DNA of 64,000 nucleotides from an uncultured Clostridia bacterium (GTDB lineage: Bacteria > Bacillota > Clostridia > TANB77 > CAG-508), in the NCBI GenBank assembly GCA_944389125.1, contig CALXLF010000004.1, forward strand, positions 70,234-134,233, written 5' to 3'. Below, one piece after another: positions 19,463-25,515 of this stretch. Position 1 is the stretch's first letter, and every line of letters begins with the position of its first letter. The notes below the pieces were generated by a model. The model did not search any database and was not told where the DNA came from. It worked only from the letters and a program-made list of their open reading frames with translations. Both the position numbers and the translations under genes were made by a program.

Positions 19463-20041
19463 TTAATTTATATAATTTTTTATTATCTCATATAATTTAT
19501 GTGTTGGTAATCCAACAATAGTTGAATAATTTCCTTCTATTTTATCAATAAAGACTCCAAATTCATCTTGAATTGCATAAGAACCTGCTTTATTCATTGC
19601 TTTTCCTGAATTAACCCATTTATCTATTTCATCATCTGAAATATCACCAAAATATACTTTTGCTTTATCATAAGTTTTAAACTCTTTTTCAATTTCTCCA
19701 TCTTTAATAAGAACACTTAAACCTGTAACAACATAATGAGCTTTATCTCCTTCTAAAAGCTCTTTTATCATTTGTTTAGCTTCTTCTTTACTTTTTGGTT
19801 TTCCAAAAATCTTATTATTTTTAACAACCATTGTATCAGAACCTATTACAATTCTATCCCAGTCTAAAGAATCATAAACATCTTTTGCTTTTAAATATGC
19901 TAATCTTGTTACTTGCTCTTCTGGTGTTAGTCCATCTAATAAAGTTTCATCTGCTTTGCTAACCATTACTTCAAATTTTGGAACAAACATACTTAATAAT
20001 TCTTTTCTTCTAGGTGATCCTGAAGCTAATATAATTCTCAT
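19463..20041 (-). CDS. maf: Maf-family nucleoside triphosphate pyrophosphatase
   Basis: MRIILASGSPRRKELL N-terminus; 192 aa. Confidence 0.85.
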   Translation of the reverse strand: MRIILASGSPRRKELLSMFVPKFEVMVSKADETLLDGLTPEEQVTRLAYLKAKDVYDSLDWDRIVIGSDTMVVKNNKIFGKPKSKEEAKQMIKELLEGDKAHYVVTGLSVLIKDGEIEKEFKTYDKAKVYFGDISDDEIDKWVNSGKAMNKAGSYAIQDEFGVFIDKIEGNYSTIVGLPTHKLYEIIKNYIN

Positions 20042-20844: not shown

Positions 20845-21024
20845 ATAAACTTATATCATATCAATTTAATTTTTTCAATAGTTATCACGAAATTTTGTTT
20901 TATCTTATTGTAATAAGTTTAAAAAACTAAAGTATCAAATATATTGAAAATATTTTTCTAATATGATATATTAAATTCGAAAATAAAATTGTTACGAAAT
21001 TTACTTAAATGGGAGGATATTGAT

Positions 21025-21369
21025 ATGAAAAAAATAATAAGTAAAATAAAAAAAATATTTTTTTCAATAGGAATACTTTTTTTTGGTTTTCCTTTTAAAA
21101 TATTCGCAGCAAATTCCGAAAACATAGATTTAAATCAATTAATGAAACCTGATACCTCAGCTGCATTATATGCCCCTCCACGCTCTTCTTCAAATAGAAA
21201 AGTAGTGGGATTTTTTATTATTCCAATAATATTATTAATAGGACTTATTATTTCTTTCAAAAAAAGTAAAAATAGTAAAACAAAAAAGAAAATATTATTG
21301 TTAATACTTATTTATTTAGTACTAGTAATATTGCTTTATTTTATATTAAGATTAAATAATATATTATAA
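21025..21369 (+). CDS. Small membrane peptide (signal-like N-terminal TM, Pro/Ser linker with QL..P...Y.PP, TM, KKSK patch, TM); paralog of 22493..22833
   Basis: GGGAGGA RBS before MKKIISK. Hydrophobic segments are present. It is paired with the downstream radical SAM gene (24-nt gap). Confidence 0.5.
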   Translation: MKKIISKIKKIFFSIGILFFGFPFKIFAANSENIDLNQLMKPDTSAALYAPPRSSSNRKVVGFFIIPIILLIGLIISFKKSKNSKTKKKILLLILIYLVLVILLYFILRLNNIL

Positions 21370-21392
21370 AAAGGAGAATAATTTATAAAAAT

Positions 21393-22481
21393 ATGTTCAA
21401 AAAAATTTACAAATTAGGTGAATTAACATTACTTAAAAATTTCAAAGATCAAGAAAGACTAAATCATACATTACTAGACTTATTTTGGGAATGTACGTTA
21501 ACATGTAATGCAAAATGCAAACATTGTGGTAGTAGTGCTGAAAAAAAGAAATATGATGGAGAATTGTCTACTGAAGAAATAAAAAATGCTTTCAAACAAA
21601 TCGCAAATGATATGGATACAAGTAAAATCTTTATAAATGTAACTGGTGGAGAACCTTTAGTTAGAAAAGATTTGTGTGAAGTAATGGAATATGCTACTAA
21701 TGAATTAGGATTTCATTGGGGTATGACATCAAATGGAATTTTATTAAATGATGAAAATATTGAAAAATTAAAAAAAGCAAATATGGAAACAATTTCAATA
21801 AGTATAGATGGGTTAGAAGAAACTCATGATAAATTTAGAGGTGTTCCAGGATCATATAAAACAATTATTAACAATATAAAGAAATTAAAAAGTGCTAATT
21901 TTGTTAAAAAAATTCAAGTTACTACGGTTTTCCATAAAGATAACATAAATCAGATTGACCAATTATATAATGTAATGCTTGGATTAAATTTAGATTCCTG
22001 GAGATTAGTTTCAATGGATCCAATTGGTAGAGCCAATGAAAATGATGATTTATTACTTGATGGAAAGGAAATTAAACATTTACTTGATTTTATAAAATCC
22101 AAGAAAAAAAATAAAAAAATGGAATTAACTTATGGATGTCCTGGATTCTTAGGTTTGGACTACGAAAAAGAAGTTAGACAAAATTATTTTTATTGTAATA
22201 CAGGTATAAATGTAGCTAGTATATTATATAATGGAGATTTATTTGTATGTCCAAATGTACCTAGAAGAAAAGAATTAATACAAGGAAATATTAGAAAAGA
22301 TAACTTTAAAGATGTATGGGATAATAAATATGAAATATTCAGAAATAAAGACAGAACTAAATGCGAAAAATGTATAAACTGTGAAAATTGGGAATACTGC
22401 CTAGGTGGAGCTTTTCATACATGGGATTTTGATAATAATATTCAAAATAAATGCACTTATAATATGATTTATAATAAATAG
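21393..22481 (+). CDS. Radical SAM enzyme with a C-terminal SPASM domain (7 Cys), anSME/peptide-maturase-like
   Basis: CNAKCKHC (Cx3Cx2C) near the N-terminus. The C-terminal region has GCPG..YCNTG..VCPN..KCEKCINCENWEYC. Confidence 0.75.
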   Translation: MFKKIYKLGELTLLKNFKDQERLNHTLLDLFWECTLTCNAKCKHCGSSAEKKKYDGELSTEEIKNAFKQIANDMDTSKIFINVTGGEPLVRKDLCEVMEYATNELGFHWGMTSNGILLNDENIEKLKKANMETISISIDGLEETHDKFRGVPGSYKTIINNIKKLKSANFVKKIQVTTVFHKDNINQIDQLYNVMLGLNLDSWRLVSMDPIGRANENDDLLLDGKEIKHLLDFIKSKKKNKKMELTYGCPGFLGLDYEKEVRQNYFYCNTGINVASILYNGDLFVCPNVPRRKELIQGNIRKDNFKDVWDNKYEIFRNKDRTKCEKCINCENWEYCLGGAFHTWDFDNNIQNKCTYNMIYNK

Positions 22482-22492
22482 GAGAATTTCAA

Positions 22493-22833
22493 ATGAAAAA
22501 AATAATAAGTAAATTAAAAAAGATTGCAATATTAATAGGAATATTTTTTATTACTTTTCCATCAAAAATATTTGCAACACCAGTTAATTTGGAACAATTA
22601 TATGGGCCACCATCTCCAAAAAATTCTTCAGCATCTCCATATTCTCCCCTTTATCAATATGGAAAATAACAAGAAACTTTGTTATTCCAATAGCTTTTAT
22701 AATAGGAATTGTTATTTATTTCAAAAAAAGTAAAAGCAGTAAACTCGTAAAAATATTAATATCTATTATAGCTTTAGAAGTTTTAGTACTTATTTGTTTA
22801 GGATTAAATTACCTTTTTACAAAAAGATACTAA
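22493..22833 (+). pseudogene. Second copy of the small membrane peptide, split by a -1 indel in a C4 homopolymer at 22646..22649 (an ordinary homopolymer-type frameshift, unlike the C-GGN events)
   Basis: Frame 1 gives MKKIISKLKKIAILIGIFFITFPSKIFA...SASPYSP and frame 3 continues LSIWKITRNFVIPIAFIIGIVIYFKKSKSSK...; one extra C would fuse them. Confidence 0.6.
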
Positions 22834-22936
22834 AAAGTACCATATTCACAAATTCTACCAAAAGTAGATTGCTAAAAATCGCTTTAAATGATAAAATTTT
22901 ATAGTAAATTATATTAAGAAAAGAGATTTAAGTTTT

Positions 22937-24427
22937 ATGACTAATGAAGAATTTGGAAAATTAATCAAAAATTTAAGACAAATAAATAAAATGACTCAAA
23001 AAGAGTTAGGTGAAAAATTACATATTACTGATAAAGCCATTTCAAAATGGGAACGTGGAATAAGCCTTCCTGATCTTGAAATGATAAATTCTATTGCAGA
23101 AGTTTTTAAAGTTCCAGTTTCTACTTTAATAGATAATGACATTAATAATAATGTTCAAACCAAAGAAAAAGAAACTCCTTCAAAACATTCTGCTTTAAAA
23201 AATAATGATACACTTATTGCTATAATTTGTGGAATTTTTATTATAGTAATAATTTTAATAATTTTATTTGGAATCAATATAAATAATAAAAATGCAGAAG
23301 TAACATCTGAAGATTTAGCTGAAGTTATCGTTGGAACAGATATTGCAAATCCTGATAGAATTATATATAAAGATTCTAATAACAATTATTATGAGTTTTT
23401 GAATGGAACCGAAAAGTATTCTAATATAAAAGGTCTTCTTCAAAAATCTATTACAAGTTATACAGATTCAGGTGAATATTTAACTGATGAAGAGATAGAT
23501 GAAATTCATAATAATACTTCATTTATTGAATTTGATTATAATACTATAAGTAAAAATTATATTATTCAATTATCTGACAATAGTAATAGAGCAGTTATAA
23601 GATTAGCTGATTCAGGAGGCAAAGTTTGTACAAAAGAAATTTCAAATTTAGATAAAATTAAAAGTACTTTAACCTCTTTAACCTCTGATGAAACTCCATA
23701 CAAATTAGATTATTATGAACTAACCTCTGAAAACTTTTTAGATAATATAAAAATAAATTCATCTTTAAAAGAAATTAGCCAAAATATTTACCAAGTAAAA
23801 ATTGATAATTTAGAAAGTTATGAAGAGTATGCTAAATTATATGATATAAAAATTAATCAAAATATTGATAATGAAACTTTTAATAATTATGACATAATTC
23901 TAACTTTAGCAATTGATTATGATATTTCAGTAAAAGTAAATCTTGGAAATATTAGATATACATATAATGCTTTAAACTCTGAAAACCGAGAATTTATAGC
24001 TCATTTATTAATAGTAAGTAAAATAGTAAATACAGATTGTATATATAATACTATTTCTACAGAATCAAATTATATATATGAAAATCTAGATCCAGAAATT
24101 TTTGTAACAAATTTAGATAACTTCTTTAAAAAATATGATTTAGCTTCATCACAAATTTCAGAAGATCAAGCATTTATAGTCTCACAAAGAGCTTTAACAT
24201 ATGCTTCTGCAAGTCTTCTTTATGATTCAGCTACAACCTTTATTAAAGAAGAGTCTGTACCCCCTAATGATTATTTCTCAAAGAATCTAGCTAAAGGTTT
24301 AGAAAATAATTCTAGAACTATTGATGTTTACGCTGTATATTATGAAGATGAGTATGGAAATGGACTTATAATTTATGTTGATAAAAAATTGGGTATGGTC
24401 ATAGGTGGAGATGAATATGGAATATAA
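22937..24427 (+). CDS. Membrane-anchored XRE-family HTH regulator with a large extracytoplasmic C-terminal domain
   Basis: N-terminal HTH_XRE (TQKELGEKLHITDKAISKWERG), one TM segment, then a 380-aa C-terminal domain. Confidence 0.6.
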   Translation: MTNEEFGKLIKNLRQINKMTQKELGEKLHITDKAISKWERGISLPDLEMINSIAEVFKVPVSTLIDNDINNNVQTKEKETPSKHSALKNNDTLIAIICGIFIIVIILIILFGININNKNAEVTSEDLAEVIVGTDIANPDRIIYKDSNNNYYEFLNGTEKYSNIKGLLQKSITSYTDSGEYLTDEEIDEIHNNTSFIEFDYNTISKNYIIQLSDNSNRAVIRLADSGGKVCTKEISNLDKIKSTLTSLTSDETPYKLDYYELTSENFLDNIKINSSLKEISQNIYQVKIDNLESYEEYAKLYDIKINQNIDNETFNNYDIILTLAIDYDISVKVNLGNIRYTYNALNSENREFIAHLLIVSKIVNTDCIYNTISTESNYIYENLDPEIFVTNLDNFFKKYDLASSQISEDQAFIVSQRALTYASASLLYDSATTFIKEESVPPNDYFSKNLAKGLENNSRTIDVYAVYYEDEYGNGLIIYVDKKLGMVIGGDEYGI

Positions 24428-24474
24428 AAAAATAACCTATTTGAAACTCTAAAATTTCAAATAGGTTATTTTTA

Positions 24475-25515
24475 TTATCTTATTTTAAGATTTGACATTA
24501 ATTCCTTTGCATATTCTAAAGTCATACCTTTAGCAGTTGACATTCTTCCTTCTTTAAGTCTAATAAAATTTGAGTCTGTAATTGAAATACCTCCACAATA
24601 AGATAAACATGTACCTTTTGCTAAATAAGCTTCAAGTTCTTCATCAGAAATATCATTAACACTTAATCTCGCAATATCTGTAACATTTATACTTTGAAGT
24701 ATTTTATCTTTTTCAGCAAGTAAAACTGAATTTCCTGTATATGCATATACATCTTCTGAGCCTCGCATACTACTAATAAGTTTACGTGCATCTTCAATCG
24801 TTTTTGGCTTCCCATACATAACATTATCAAATACTATATTTTGATCAGCTGCAACTATAAGACGTAATCCCCTATCTTTAGTTTTTTCAAAAATAACTTG
24901 AGATTTACGACTAGAAATTTCAGCTAATTGATTTTTAAAAGTTTTAGAAGTATCAGGTGTTTCATCTGCGTCGCTGACCATTATCTCAAAAGGAATACTT
25001 GCATCAATAAGTTGTTGTTTACGTACTTTAGACTTAGAAGCTAAAATTACACGAGGAAAATTCTTTACAATTTCTTTAAATGGCTCTATCAAATCTTCTG
25101 GTTTATCATAAAAAATAATCTTAGTTGCAATATTTGCCATTGTAGTAGAAATATCACTATTTTTCTTAGCAATAACATAAATCGGTTTTCCTGCAGCATA
25201 GCAAAAGCCGCCATTCATACCAAGTCCAACACCTTTTTCACTAAATTCAATTATATTACAATCGCATTGCATCATTGCTGGAAATGCATAATCTCTCATT
25301 AAAGATTTCCCTTCTGGAATATGTGCCTTCCCCCATTTTTCAACATCACGCGCCATTAAAGTAATTTCTATTCCTGCTTTATTTAAAGCATTTTCAATTG
25401 CTTCAACTTTTGCTTTATCTTCTTCACCATCATGAAATTTTAATGCAAAAAATGAATGCAATGTTCCTGCTTTTCTTTCATAAGAAATTTTAGCTTTTTG
25501 TGCTATTTCTGACAT
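24475..25515 (-). CDS. Maf-like pyrophosphatase domain (SKSKVRKQ instead of SGSPRRKE) fused to an N-terminal ~160-aa Rossmann-like (possibly nucleoside 2-deoxyribosyltransferase/LOG-like) domain
   Basis: The C-terminal half aligns with Maf (ILASKSKVRKQQLIDASIPFEIMVSDADE, RLIVAADQNIVFDNVMYGKP). The N-terminal domain assignment is tentative. Confidence 0.5.
   Translation of the reverse strand: MSEIAQKAKISYERKAGTLHSFFALKFHDGEEDKAKVEAIENALNKAGIEITLMARDVEKWGKAHIPEGKSLMRDYAFPAMMQCDCNIIEFSEKGVGLGMNGGFCYAAGKPIYVIAKKNSDISTTMANIATKIIFYDKPEDLIEPFKEIVKNFPRVILASKSKVRKQQLIDASIPFEIMVSDADETPDTSKTFKNQLAEISSRKSQVIFEKTKDRGLRLIVAADQNIVFDNVMYGKPKTIEDARKLISSMRGSEDVYAYTGNSVLLAEKDKILQSINVTDIARLSVNDISDEELEAYLAKGTCLSYCGGISITDSNFIRLKEGRMSTAKGMTLEYAKELMSNLKIR

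Follow-up and report, generated by a model that had tools for sequence, protein, structure and literature searches.

What might be the target of a radical SAM enzyme whose gene lies between those of two small, similar membrane peptides? The question is raised by a locus of an uncultured Clostridia bacterium (contig CALXLF010000004.1, assembly GCA_944389125.1), contained within the stretch of 64,000 nucleotides which was analyzed here and is called the window below. Three same-strand open reading frames (ORFs), pepA, a radical SAM (rSAM)/SPASM gene and pepB, form in it one tight cassette, where the rSAM/SPASM gene starts 23 nt past the pepA stop and pepB starts 11 nt past the rSAM stop; each of the three is preceded by an AGGAG-type ribosome-binding site, GGAGG in the case of pepA. 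A gene for a membrane protein with a helix-turn-helix (HTH) domain follows. [quoted passage not shown] On balance, we consider it probable that the cassette is a two-component system, in which the rSAM/SPASM enzyme modifies the Tyr of an x-Y-[G/A]-x-P motif in the pepA and pepB products before their export, tyramine splicing being the favoured chemistry.

The pepA product begins with a signal-peptide-like N-terminus (residues 1-28, ending in FKIFA), followed by an extracytoplasmic linker of about 33 residues, a first transmembrane helix (TM1), a FKKSKNSKTKKK loop and a second helix (TM2). The layout common to pepA and pepB consists of MKKIISK(I/L)KKI, a hydrophobic stretch to KIFA, the linker, TM1, FKKSK.SK and TM2. 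The pepB ORF halts after 58 aa, at 22669, and the paralogous sequence resumes in the +1 frame (PLSIWKITRNFVIPIAF..YFKKSKSSK..KRY); by adding one C at 22646-22649, a 113-aa pepB is obtained, 43% identical to pepA over 68 aa (BLASTP E = 4e-11). The signal/TM architecture initially ascribed to both peptides was correct, as was the remark that they are essentially devoid of Cys (none in pepA, one in the repaired pepB) and do not belong to the sactipeptide or SCIFF type. No Pfam or NCBIfam family was matched by pepA, and no third copy of pepA/pepB was revealed by a peptide profile scan of the 64-kb window.

Pairing of enzyme and peptides was evaluated in both directions. On the enzyme side, one genome per GTDB species was scanned, 80 loci being returned, and an automatic count was performed on 83 loci. 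In 72 of the 83, the rSAM relative is adjoined by a same-strand ORF featuring a signal peptide or a lipobox and a YG dipeptide; the count is crude, with a few false calls both ways and several misses at contig ends. The paired loci span Clostridia, Patescibacteria, Bacteroidota and Neomarinimicrobiota, and three groups may be told apart among the loci. The first is composed of uncultured gut Clostridia metagenome-assembled genomes (MAGs), from sources that include human, ruminant, rabbit and mouse samples, with one 1.55-Mb chromosome and rSAM identities of 73-85%. The second contains another Clostridia clade together with Patescibacteria, Peregrinibacteria and Paceibacterota (44-56%), the third Bacteroidota and a few others (36-43%).

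Nearly all loci from Clostridia and from the candidate phyla radiation (CPR), where the module occurs in L019, L027 and L028, contain one to three small same-strand ORFs abutting the rSAM gene, either up- or downstream. In their products, a Lys-rich N-terminus leads into a hydrophobic stretch to (K)(I/V)FA; past a short linker comes a transmembrane helix with a basic cluster behind it, often followed by a second helix. In the Bacteroidota loci the adjoining gene encodes a lipobox lipoprotein, and one Bacteroidales example matches TIGR04134 with 109.8 bits. The genes around the cassette differ from locus to locus, and no other enzyme, protease or exporter was found to be conserved with the pair in the cassette loci compared. 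At 2967-3259 and 1516-1845 of L016, a Clostridia MAG whose rSAM shows 73% identity, the partner genes encode tiny lipoproteins with a lipobox, containing ..LLSGC-ESDGPQAVYGPPPSEFTK and VYGPPP, and a 109-aa protein of this locus carries LYDVP, LYGPPRQ and LYGPPRK; the type of anchor switches even within Clostridia. Two tandem pairs of rSAM and lipoprotein genes are present in a Bacteroidales MAG (L046, 2760-5755).

On the peptide side, a search with the single pepA sequence retrieved one relative only, and a profile built from 27 neighbour peptides was needed to collect more. The profile identified 209 clusters, none of them with a Pfam domain or a name in the source. All five peptide homologs that were looked up, picked solely on the length of their contigs (P0121, P0292, P0356, P0364 and P0385), are encoded just downstream of an rSAM/SPASM protein of 362-366 aa, in five different neighbourhoods; an overlap of 8 nt between rSAM stop and peptide start is seen in P0292, P0356, P0364 and P0385, while P0121 comes last in a tandem array of three copies. 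The peptides might have been ordinary membrane genes, found also away from the enzyme, a doubt raised at the outset; in these look-ups the enzyme adjoins each time. As far as comparative genomics reaches, this strict co-occurrence, in both directions and across phyla, supports a RiPP-like pair of maturase and substrate.

Only two columns are invariant in the alignment of 27 Clostridia/CPR peptides, one Tyr (Y49 in pepA, Y37 in pepB) and one Gly inside TM1, the Tyr being the sole invariant extracytoplasmic residue. It is followed by Gly in 26 of the 27 sequences, the exception being the Ala in the pepA of the window. When 120 profile matches were considered, 115 showed YG, usually within two copies of KYGVF(D/E)P, and the other five showed (M/V)YA(V/A)DPGP at the same position. 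Random shuffles of the residues contain YG in 4.9 of 27 and 30.7 of 120 peptides on average, and the observed counts were never reached in 2000 trials; in the other ORFs of the loci, the YG background is 0.0027 per residue. The residue before the Tyr is Leu, Met or Val in the clade of the window and Lys in the 55% clade, whereas Bacteroidota may have Glu, Met, Lys or Leu at this place; in one Clostridia clade, Lys is found there in about 190 of 209 motifs. The Bacteroidota motif reads Y-G-(T/V/S/P/M)-P, occasionally Y-A-S-P, and is located at a median of 10 residues past the lipobox Cys. The anchor thus appears to be interchangeable (two transmembrane helices, one, or a lipid) and, since the motif is kept while the anchor changes, x-Y-[G/A]-x-P just outside the membrane seems to be the constant feature of the partners. 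A modification site within the Tyr/Pro-containing linker, as first suggested, would be consistent with one invariant soluble Tyr in this motif. The segments originally paired, ALYAP of pepA and SPYSP of pepB, are not the corresponding ones: in the alignment LYAPP of pepA matches LYGPP of pepB.

The enzyme matches the Pfam domains Radical_SAM (1.3e-27) and SPASM (1.1e-08). Its best NCBIfam model is TIGR04133 ('rSAM_w_lipo'), with 320.1 bits against a cutoff of 425, hence below membership. The runners-up are AhbD TIGR04545 (175 bits, cutoff 500), TIGR04053 (160), MftC (142) and TIGR04103 (119.1, cutoff 725); the last of these, 'nif11-class peptide rSAM maturase 3', is taken by us to be equivalent to IPR026482 of the splicease PlpX. 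Scores with the models of NirJ2 (139.5, cutoff 500), the SCIFF maturase TIGR03974 (82.7, cutoff 425) and PapB (105.6, cutoff 340) also fall short. In direct scans, TIGR04133 scores are cleanly split, with 542-612 bits for Bacteroidota and Neomarinimicrobiota homologs and 299-351 for those from Clostridia, Patescibacteria and Peregrinibacteria. Judged by these scores, the former are true TIGR04133 members, and the window enzyme is therefore assigned to a sister subfamily that has no model of its own. Relatives are numerous: 2661 matches were found, 363 cluster representatives (50% clustering level) reach E < 1e-30, and the top 120 cluster representatives are 78-87% identical to the enzyme.

Among 30 family members, C38-X3-C42-X2-C45 is invariant. 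In the SPASM region, C268-X12-G-X4-C286, C327-X2-C330-X5-C336 and the final C354 are all invariant in the family alignment, and C249 is conserved in 70% of the family, being otherwise Glu or Asp. The count of seven Cys given by the initial annotation stands, with C324 in addition, but the region is not the full canonical one: the fourth Cys of CX2CX5CX3C is absent family-wide, and an invariant His342 is found after C336 (C336-LGGAF-H342, window 22398-22418). This segment may provide an unusual ligand or leave an open coordination site on the auxiliary cluster.

In the AlphaFold2 model of the enzyme (pLDDT 78, pTM 0.81) a single helix of residues 2-24 precedes the core, which begins near residue 30, and no RiPP recognition element (RRE) domain is present. 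The closest solved folds are SkfB, SuiB and anSME, SPASM enzymes that modify peptides or proteins, all distant, with TM-scores of about 0.62-0.65, and the best PDB sequence matches are SkfB (65 bits) and CteB (63 bits); sequence and fold searches of PDB retrieve distant SPASM enzymes only, so that one chemistry cannot be told from another by them. Fused proteins occur in the family, namely P0127, P0131, P0137 and P0149 (about 545-665 aa), P0147 and P0160 (about 850 aa), and also P0151 and P0164. The fused segments include a C-terminal extension of about 200 aa without a clear domain, with a weak Prok-JAB match in P0131, as well as tails of the zinc-ribbon type and, in some members, an additional rSAM domain at the N-terminus; a domain scan of the long forms detected no informative extra domains. 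In another homolog, P0132, many of the invariant Gly residues are replaced by Trp (TWWEP, IWRA, PWSY), a pattern that fits a UGA=Gly lineage, of the Gracilibacteria/Absconditabacteria type, translated as UGA=Trp; if so, the module would be present in recoded CPR bacteria as well.

Table 1. Features of the cassette and of its surroundings; positions refer to the window.
Feature	Position	Strand	Evidence
Possible cassette promoter, promoter-like site TTGAAA-17-TATATT with TG	20944..20972	+	weak consensus match upstream of pepA
pepA, 114 aa	21025..21369	+	ORF; profile of related peptides, E = 8e-27
pepA motif L48-Y49-A50-P51-P52, with the family's invariant Tyr and Ala replacing the usual Gly	21166..21180	+	alignment
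Radical SAM/SPASM enzyme, 362 aa, sister subfamily of TIGR04133	21393..22481	+	Pfam, NCBIfam
CX3CX2C radical SAM cluster motif (C38, C42, C45)	21504..21527	+	invariant in 30 family members
SPASM auxiliary-cluster region, C249, C268-X12-G-X4-C286, C327-X2-C330-X5-C336, H342, C354	22137..22454	+	family alignment
pepB 5' part, 58-aa ORF ended by the frameshift, signal peptide and L36-Y37-G38-P39-P40 (22598-22612)	22493..22669	+	ORF
C4 homopolymer; the full-length paralog would be regained with C5	22646..22649	+	sequence
pepB 3' part, +1 frame, ..PLSIWKITRNFVIPIAF.. TM1, FKKSKSSK loop, TM2, stop	22648..22834	+	profile match, E = 1e-15
HTH gene, N-terminal HTH_3 (1.5e-13), then a transmembrane segment	22937..24427	+	Pfam

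Among known systems, a similar two-gene logic is shown by the TIGR04133/TIGR04134 pair ('radical SAM-associated putative lipoprotein'), uncharacterised and listed in NCBIfam as hypothetical equivalogs. Its enzyme has the same length and build (N-terminal helix, rSAM and SPASM domains, CX3CX2C, about 350-365 aa, no RRE), and the adjoining exported partner carries Y-G-x-P a few residues past the signal sequence. The system described here differs in that the window enzyme and its Clostridia/CPR relatives score below the 425 cutoff; moreover, the Clostridia partner is a protein of 100-125 aa with a signal peptide and two transmembrane helices, unlike the TIGR04134 lipoproteins with their β-sandwich domain, and no match to TIGR04134 was given by pepA, the repaired pepB or P0121, even at E = 10.

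A likeness of a different kind concerns the modification site. Spliceases are rSAM-SPASM enzymes which excise a tyramine equivalent at XYG (-135.06 Da), producing an α-keto-β-amino acid from X (PMC11414181, PMC11626197, PMC9811515). The characterised sites are MYG and LYG (PMC11626197, PMC11414181), and the tags PIRP-L-YG-LPI and AVAA-M-YG-VVFP work as splice tags (PMC10533398). Binary spliceases function without an RRE protein, PlpX being leader-independent (PMC11414181), and Met- and Leu-derived ketoamide spliceotides inhibit elastase, chymotrypsin and cathepsin B (PMC11626197). In spliceotide systems (PlpX/PlpY/PlpA; RhaX, RasX and RcsX with their A precursors), as in the loci analyzed here, an rSAM/SPASM gene is located beside X-Y-G precursors, often with a repeated motif and with variable X (Met or Leu where systems have been characterised). 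The LYGPPSP, LYGVPSP and KYGVFEP sites resemble the known splice tags in combining YG, a hydrophobic residue and Pro; pepB presents X-Y-G as LYG (22598-22606), and pepA presents LYA. Unlike spliceotide precursors with their Nif11/NHLP leaders, the partners are equipped with membrane anchors and with signal peptides of the Sec or lipoprotein type; beside the pair there is no gene for an exporter or a protease, and pepA has Y-A. As to a Y (RRE-like) protein or an activating leader helix, no further gene was seen to be conserved with the pair, and the helix of the signal peptide might take such a role.

A mechanism may be proposed as follows. The cytoplasm must be the place of action of an Fe-S rSAM enzyme that lacks a signal peptide, and its partners are exported, so that modification of the Tyr before export would be the simplest arrangement. 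The cytoplasmic rSAM/SPASM enzyme would act on the invariant Tyr before Sec/YidC export, a Sec-type signal peptide being used in place of a RiPP leader, with signal peptidase as the 'leader protease' and Sec as the transporter. According to the positive-inside rule, the linker would lie outside and the KKSK loop inside. After export, a modified segment of 30-35 residues would be found on the outer face of the membrane, tethered by transmembrane helices and the Lys-rich cytoplasmic loop in Clostridia, by a single helix in CPR bacteria and by a lipid anchor in Bacteroidota. By analogy, the match of x-Y-G-x-P to the XYG site of spliceases favours tyramine splicing: excision of the tyramine equivalent would turn X, which is Leu in pepA and pepB, into an α-keto-β-amino acid with an electrophilic ketoamide, and this residue, placed at P1, could serve as a surface-tethered warhead, for example against proteases. 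A surface-tethered protease shield would be a coherent, if speculative, role.

Changes made in the cytoplasm, before export, in signal-peptide-bearing proteins by SPASM rSAM enzymes without an RRE are exemplified by anSME (AtsB/ChuR) with sulfatases and by QhpD with QhpC. Their targets are different ones, C/S-x-P-x-R with formylglycine as the product in the first case and thioether cross-links in the second; anSME, one of the closest solved folds (TM-score about 0.62), is about 16-20% identical in sequence to the enzyme. The SPASM peptide-maturase fold is shared also by the maturases of sactipeptides, ranthipeptides and SCIFF peptides (SkfB, CteB, PapB), from which the pair is distinguished by partners with 0-1 Cys, no N-terminal RRE and scores far below the model cutoffs; a system of this kind was rejected, thioether chemistry being excluded by the Cys content of the partners. 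Two other candidates were discarded: an AhbD-like cofactor enzyme, for its low scores and an unfitting gene context, and the Lys-rich cytoplasmic loop as the target, for its absence from CPR and Bacteroidota partners.

Several points weigh against splicing at the Tyr before export, a reading which rests on comparative genomics. The loci used for co-occurrence come from related genomes and are not independent events. By model score, the enzyme is set apart from the PlpX family, and its nearest characterised profiles, AhbD/NirJ (tetrapyrrole) and MftC, imply that the chemistry could differ. The cytoplasmic Fe-S enzyme must reach its site before membrane insertion, and the substrate must stay accessible. 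Furthermore, the intact copy in this genome, pepA, is of the rarer Y-A type, and could be spliced if a splicease tolerates Ala at the Gly position, while the Y-G copy, pepB, is deprived of its anchor.

The same pair might use the same Tyr for a different chemistry, such as a cross-link or a Y-G-x three-residue cyclophane, a Cβ or ring modification, an MftC-type oxidation or the formation of a Tyr-derived redox cofactor, the product being exported as in QhpD/QhpC. The enzyme is nearer to AhbD/NirJ, TIGR04053 and MftC than to the splicease model TIGR04103 (142 bits for MftC, 119 for TIGR04103), its SPASM region is atypical, with the CX3C Cys missing and His342 invariant, and Y-A variants occur. 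However, X-Y-G followed by a hydrophobic residue and Pro is a documented splice-site context, the residue before the Tyr is free (K, L, M, E, A, D), as expected of a β-residue, and no cross-link partner is conserved past YG, except for the Pro. Such a chemistry is possible, and we hold it to be rather unlikely.

The state of pepB bears on whether the cassette is still functional. The exact 58-aa product was found on 12 contigs, which stem from a minimum of 6 runs or samples and of 2 projects. C4 was present in seven out of seven independent loci fetched (ERR4096477, ERR4096502, ERR4096574, SRR23918709, SRR23918732 and two ENA assemblies), with 100% identity along 640 nt. Since the same C4 is found in contigs of several runs and projects, the frameshift is a genuine fixed allele of a circulating strain, and not a read error. 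The homopolymer indel noted in the initial annotation does interrupt pepB, but the sequencing error proposed to explain it is contradicted by the 12 contigs with the same allele. Phase variation, its other suggestion, found no support, all recovered contigs being C4, in a look-up by the exact 58-aa product, which cannot retrieve intact C5 contigs. If made at all, the frameshifted pepB product would end up as a peptide that is secreted, with a length of about 30 residues.

Frameshifts were observed in relatives too. In L009 (about 3297-3611, upstream copy) and L030 (about 3760-4105) the N-terminus and the remainder of the peptide are in different frames, and in L029 (4001-5139) the rSAM gene itself is frameshifted. 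Frameshifted or degenerate copies in relatives suggest a rapid birth and death of the partner genes; rapid turnover or slippage in A/T-rich runs may be at their origin.

Taken together with the fixed pepB frameshift and with a pepA which, alone among the 27 aligned peptides, has Ala after the Tyr, the copies in L009, L030 and L029 would fit a cassette decaying in this genome, with pepB as a pseudogene, a Y-A pepA no longer used as a substrate and the rSAM gene as a remnant. We regard decay as unlikely: the rSAM gene is intact, and its product shares 78-87% identity with more than 120 cluster representatives, Y-A turns up independently elsewhere, where both the partner and the adjoining rSAM are intact (the P0356 type; LYASPHA in Bacteroidales), and the 58-aa pepB, which keeps the signal peptide and LYGPP, could still be a secreted substrate.

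The HTH protein (496 aa) is composed of an N-terminal HTH_3 domain, one transmembrane segment and a C-terminal region of about 370 aa without a family match, and is probably, judging from these domains, a membrane-bound one-component regulator. It had been presented as a membrane-bound XRE regulator and partner of the cassette. That it senses or regulates the cassette is suggested by the position of its gene, on the same strand and 102 nt downstream, and by the failure to find a terminator in the gap after pepB, with a scan which is weak in AT-rich DNA; a promoter-like site, however, is located within this same gap. By tblastn, matches to the HTH protein were obtained only in the same-strain loci L001 and L002, and in none of about 90 other cassette loci; the ThiF and Maf neighbours of the window are likewise confined to same-strain loci. 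A regulatory link is very doubtful, and because conserved linkage with the cassette does not extend beyond same-strain loci, the protein is most likely a mere neighbour, outside the module.

It is highly improbable, finally, that the enzyme has a non-peptide substrate, by an AhbD/NirJ-like cofactor chemistry for which its second-best profiles (AhbD heme b synthase, 175 bits, and NirJ2) would speak, and that the small membrane proteins are anchors or unrelated neighbours, since these profiles score far below their cutoffs (500 or more), the anchor of the partners varies (two helices, a single one, a lipid) while only Y-[G/A]-x-P is kept, the exported Bacteroidota lipoproteins have no cytoplasmic part to anchor the enzyme, the module is found in the CPR loci too, and no tetrapyrrole genes are near the cassette. 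Nor did the enzyme group with rSAMs of non-peptide substrates, as was feared initially, its TIGR04133 score being about twice that of AhbD.

Splicing before export may be extended, as a tentative proposal, to all the hosts of the module. In Clostridia, CPR bacteria and Bacteroidota, a shared pair, made of a TIGR04133-superfamily rSAM and a Sec or lipoprotein mini-protein, would possibly provide x-Y-[G/A]-x-P, ahead of export, with warheads of the α-ketoamide (β-amino acid) type in the backbone, the signal peptide acting as leader and the product being tethered to the surface; the residue before the Tyr would set protease specificity (P1), and the product would be a shield against proteases of the host or of competitors, a membrane protein modified after translation and not a diffusible RiPP.

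No literature on the TIGR04133/TIGR04134 family was found in the searches, whose reach did not extend to Scott et al. 2022 (Chem 8:2659), said to be a catalogue of splicease types. A genome-mining survey, in which all rSAM-SPASM enzymes were screened for YG-rich neighbours, is summarised in two other papers as having reported 27 confirmed pairs, 189 genera and 939 predicted systems (PMC10849128, PMC10533398), and may already include this superfamily. With respect to models and searchable papers, the Clostridia/CPR subfamily is new, as are its partners, made of signal peptide, YG and transmembrane helices, and Y-[G/A]-x-P as the sole common denominator across anchors. Both the subfamily and its peptides are invisible to annotation, as there is no Pfam or NCBIfam model for the peptides and the enzyme lies under the TIGR04133 cutoff.

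If splicing before export is correct, backbone editing by radical SAM enzymes would not be confined to secreted natural products, and anaerobes (gut Clostridia, Bacteroidota and minimal CPR bacteria) would widely decorate surface-anchored proteins, with Sec signal peptides as leaders. The uncharacterised TIGR04133/TIGR04134 pair gains a testable hypothesis, with the Tyr of Y-G-x-P as the site and an expected mass change; Phocaeicola coprocola DSM 17136 and Labilibaculum manganireducens are among the cultured hosts of this pair. Protein engineering may gain compact enzymes that need no RRE.

The local GC content is 23-24% at 20-24 kb of the window, and the neighbours of the cassette are housekeeping genes: NAD biosynthesis genes, Maf and a TcdA/ThiF-type gene, according to Pfam and NCBIfam matches. 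Scans for promoters and terminators were uninformative in this AT-rich DNA; promoter-like sites are no more numerous in the region than in shuffles, and the one upstream of pepA is a consensus match only. Two Maf paralogs flank the cassette, at 19463-20041 and 24475-25515. The latter encodes 346 aa, with an extra N-terminal region showing a weak nucleoside 2-deoxyribosyltransferase-like match. A perfect inverted repeat of 20 bp, at 24428-24473, lies between this Maf-fusion gene and the HTH gene, which are convergent, and resembles a bidirectional terminator. Farther away, two tRNA genes are located at 29272-29342 and 29470-29540 (+), and a T-box leader (110 bits) was identified at 37478-37697 (-), upstream of a 927-aa ORF (34637-37420).

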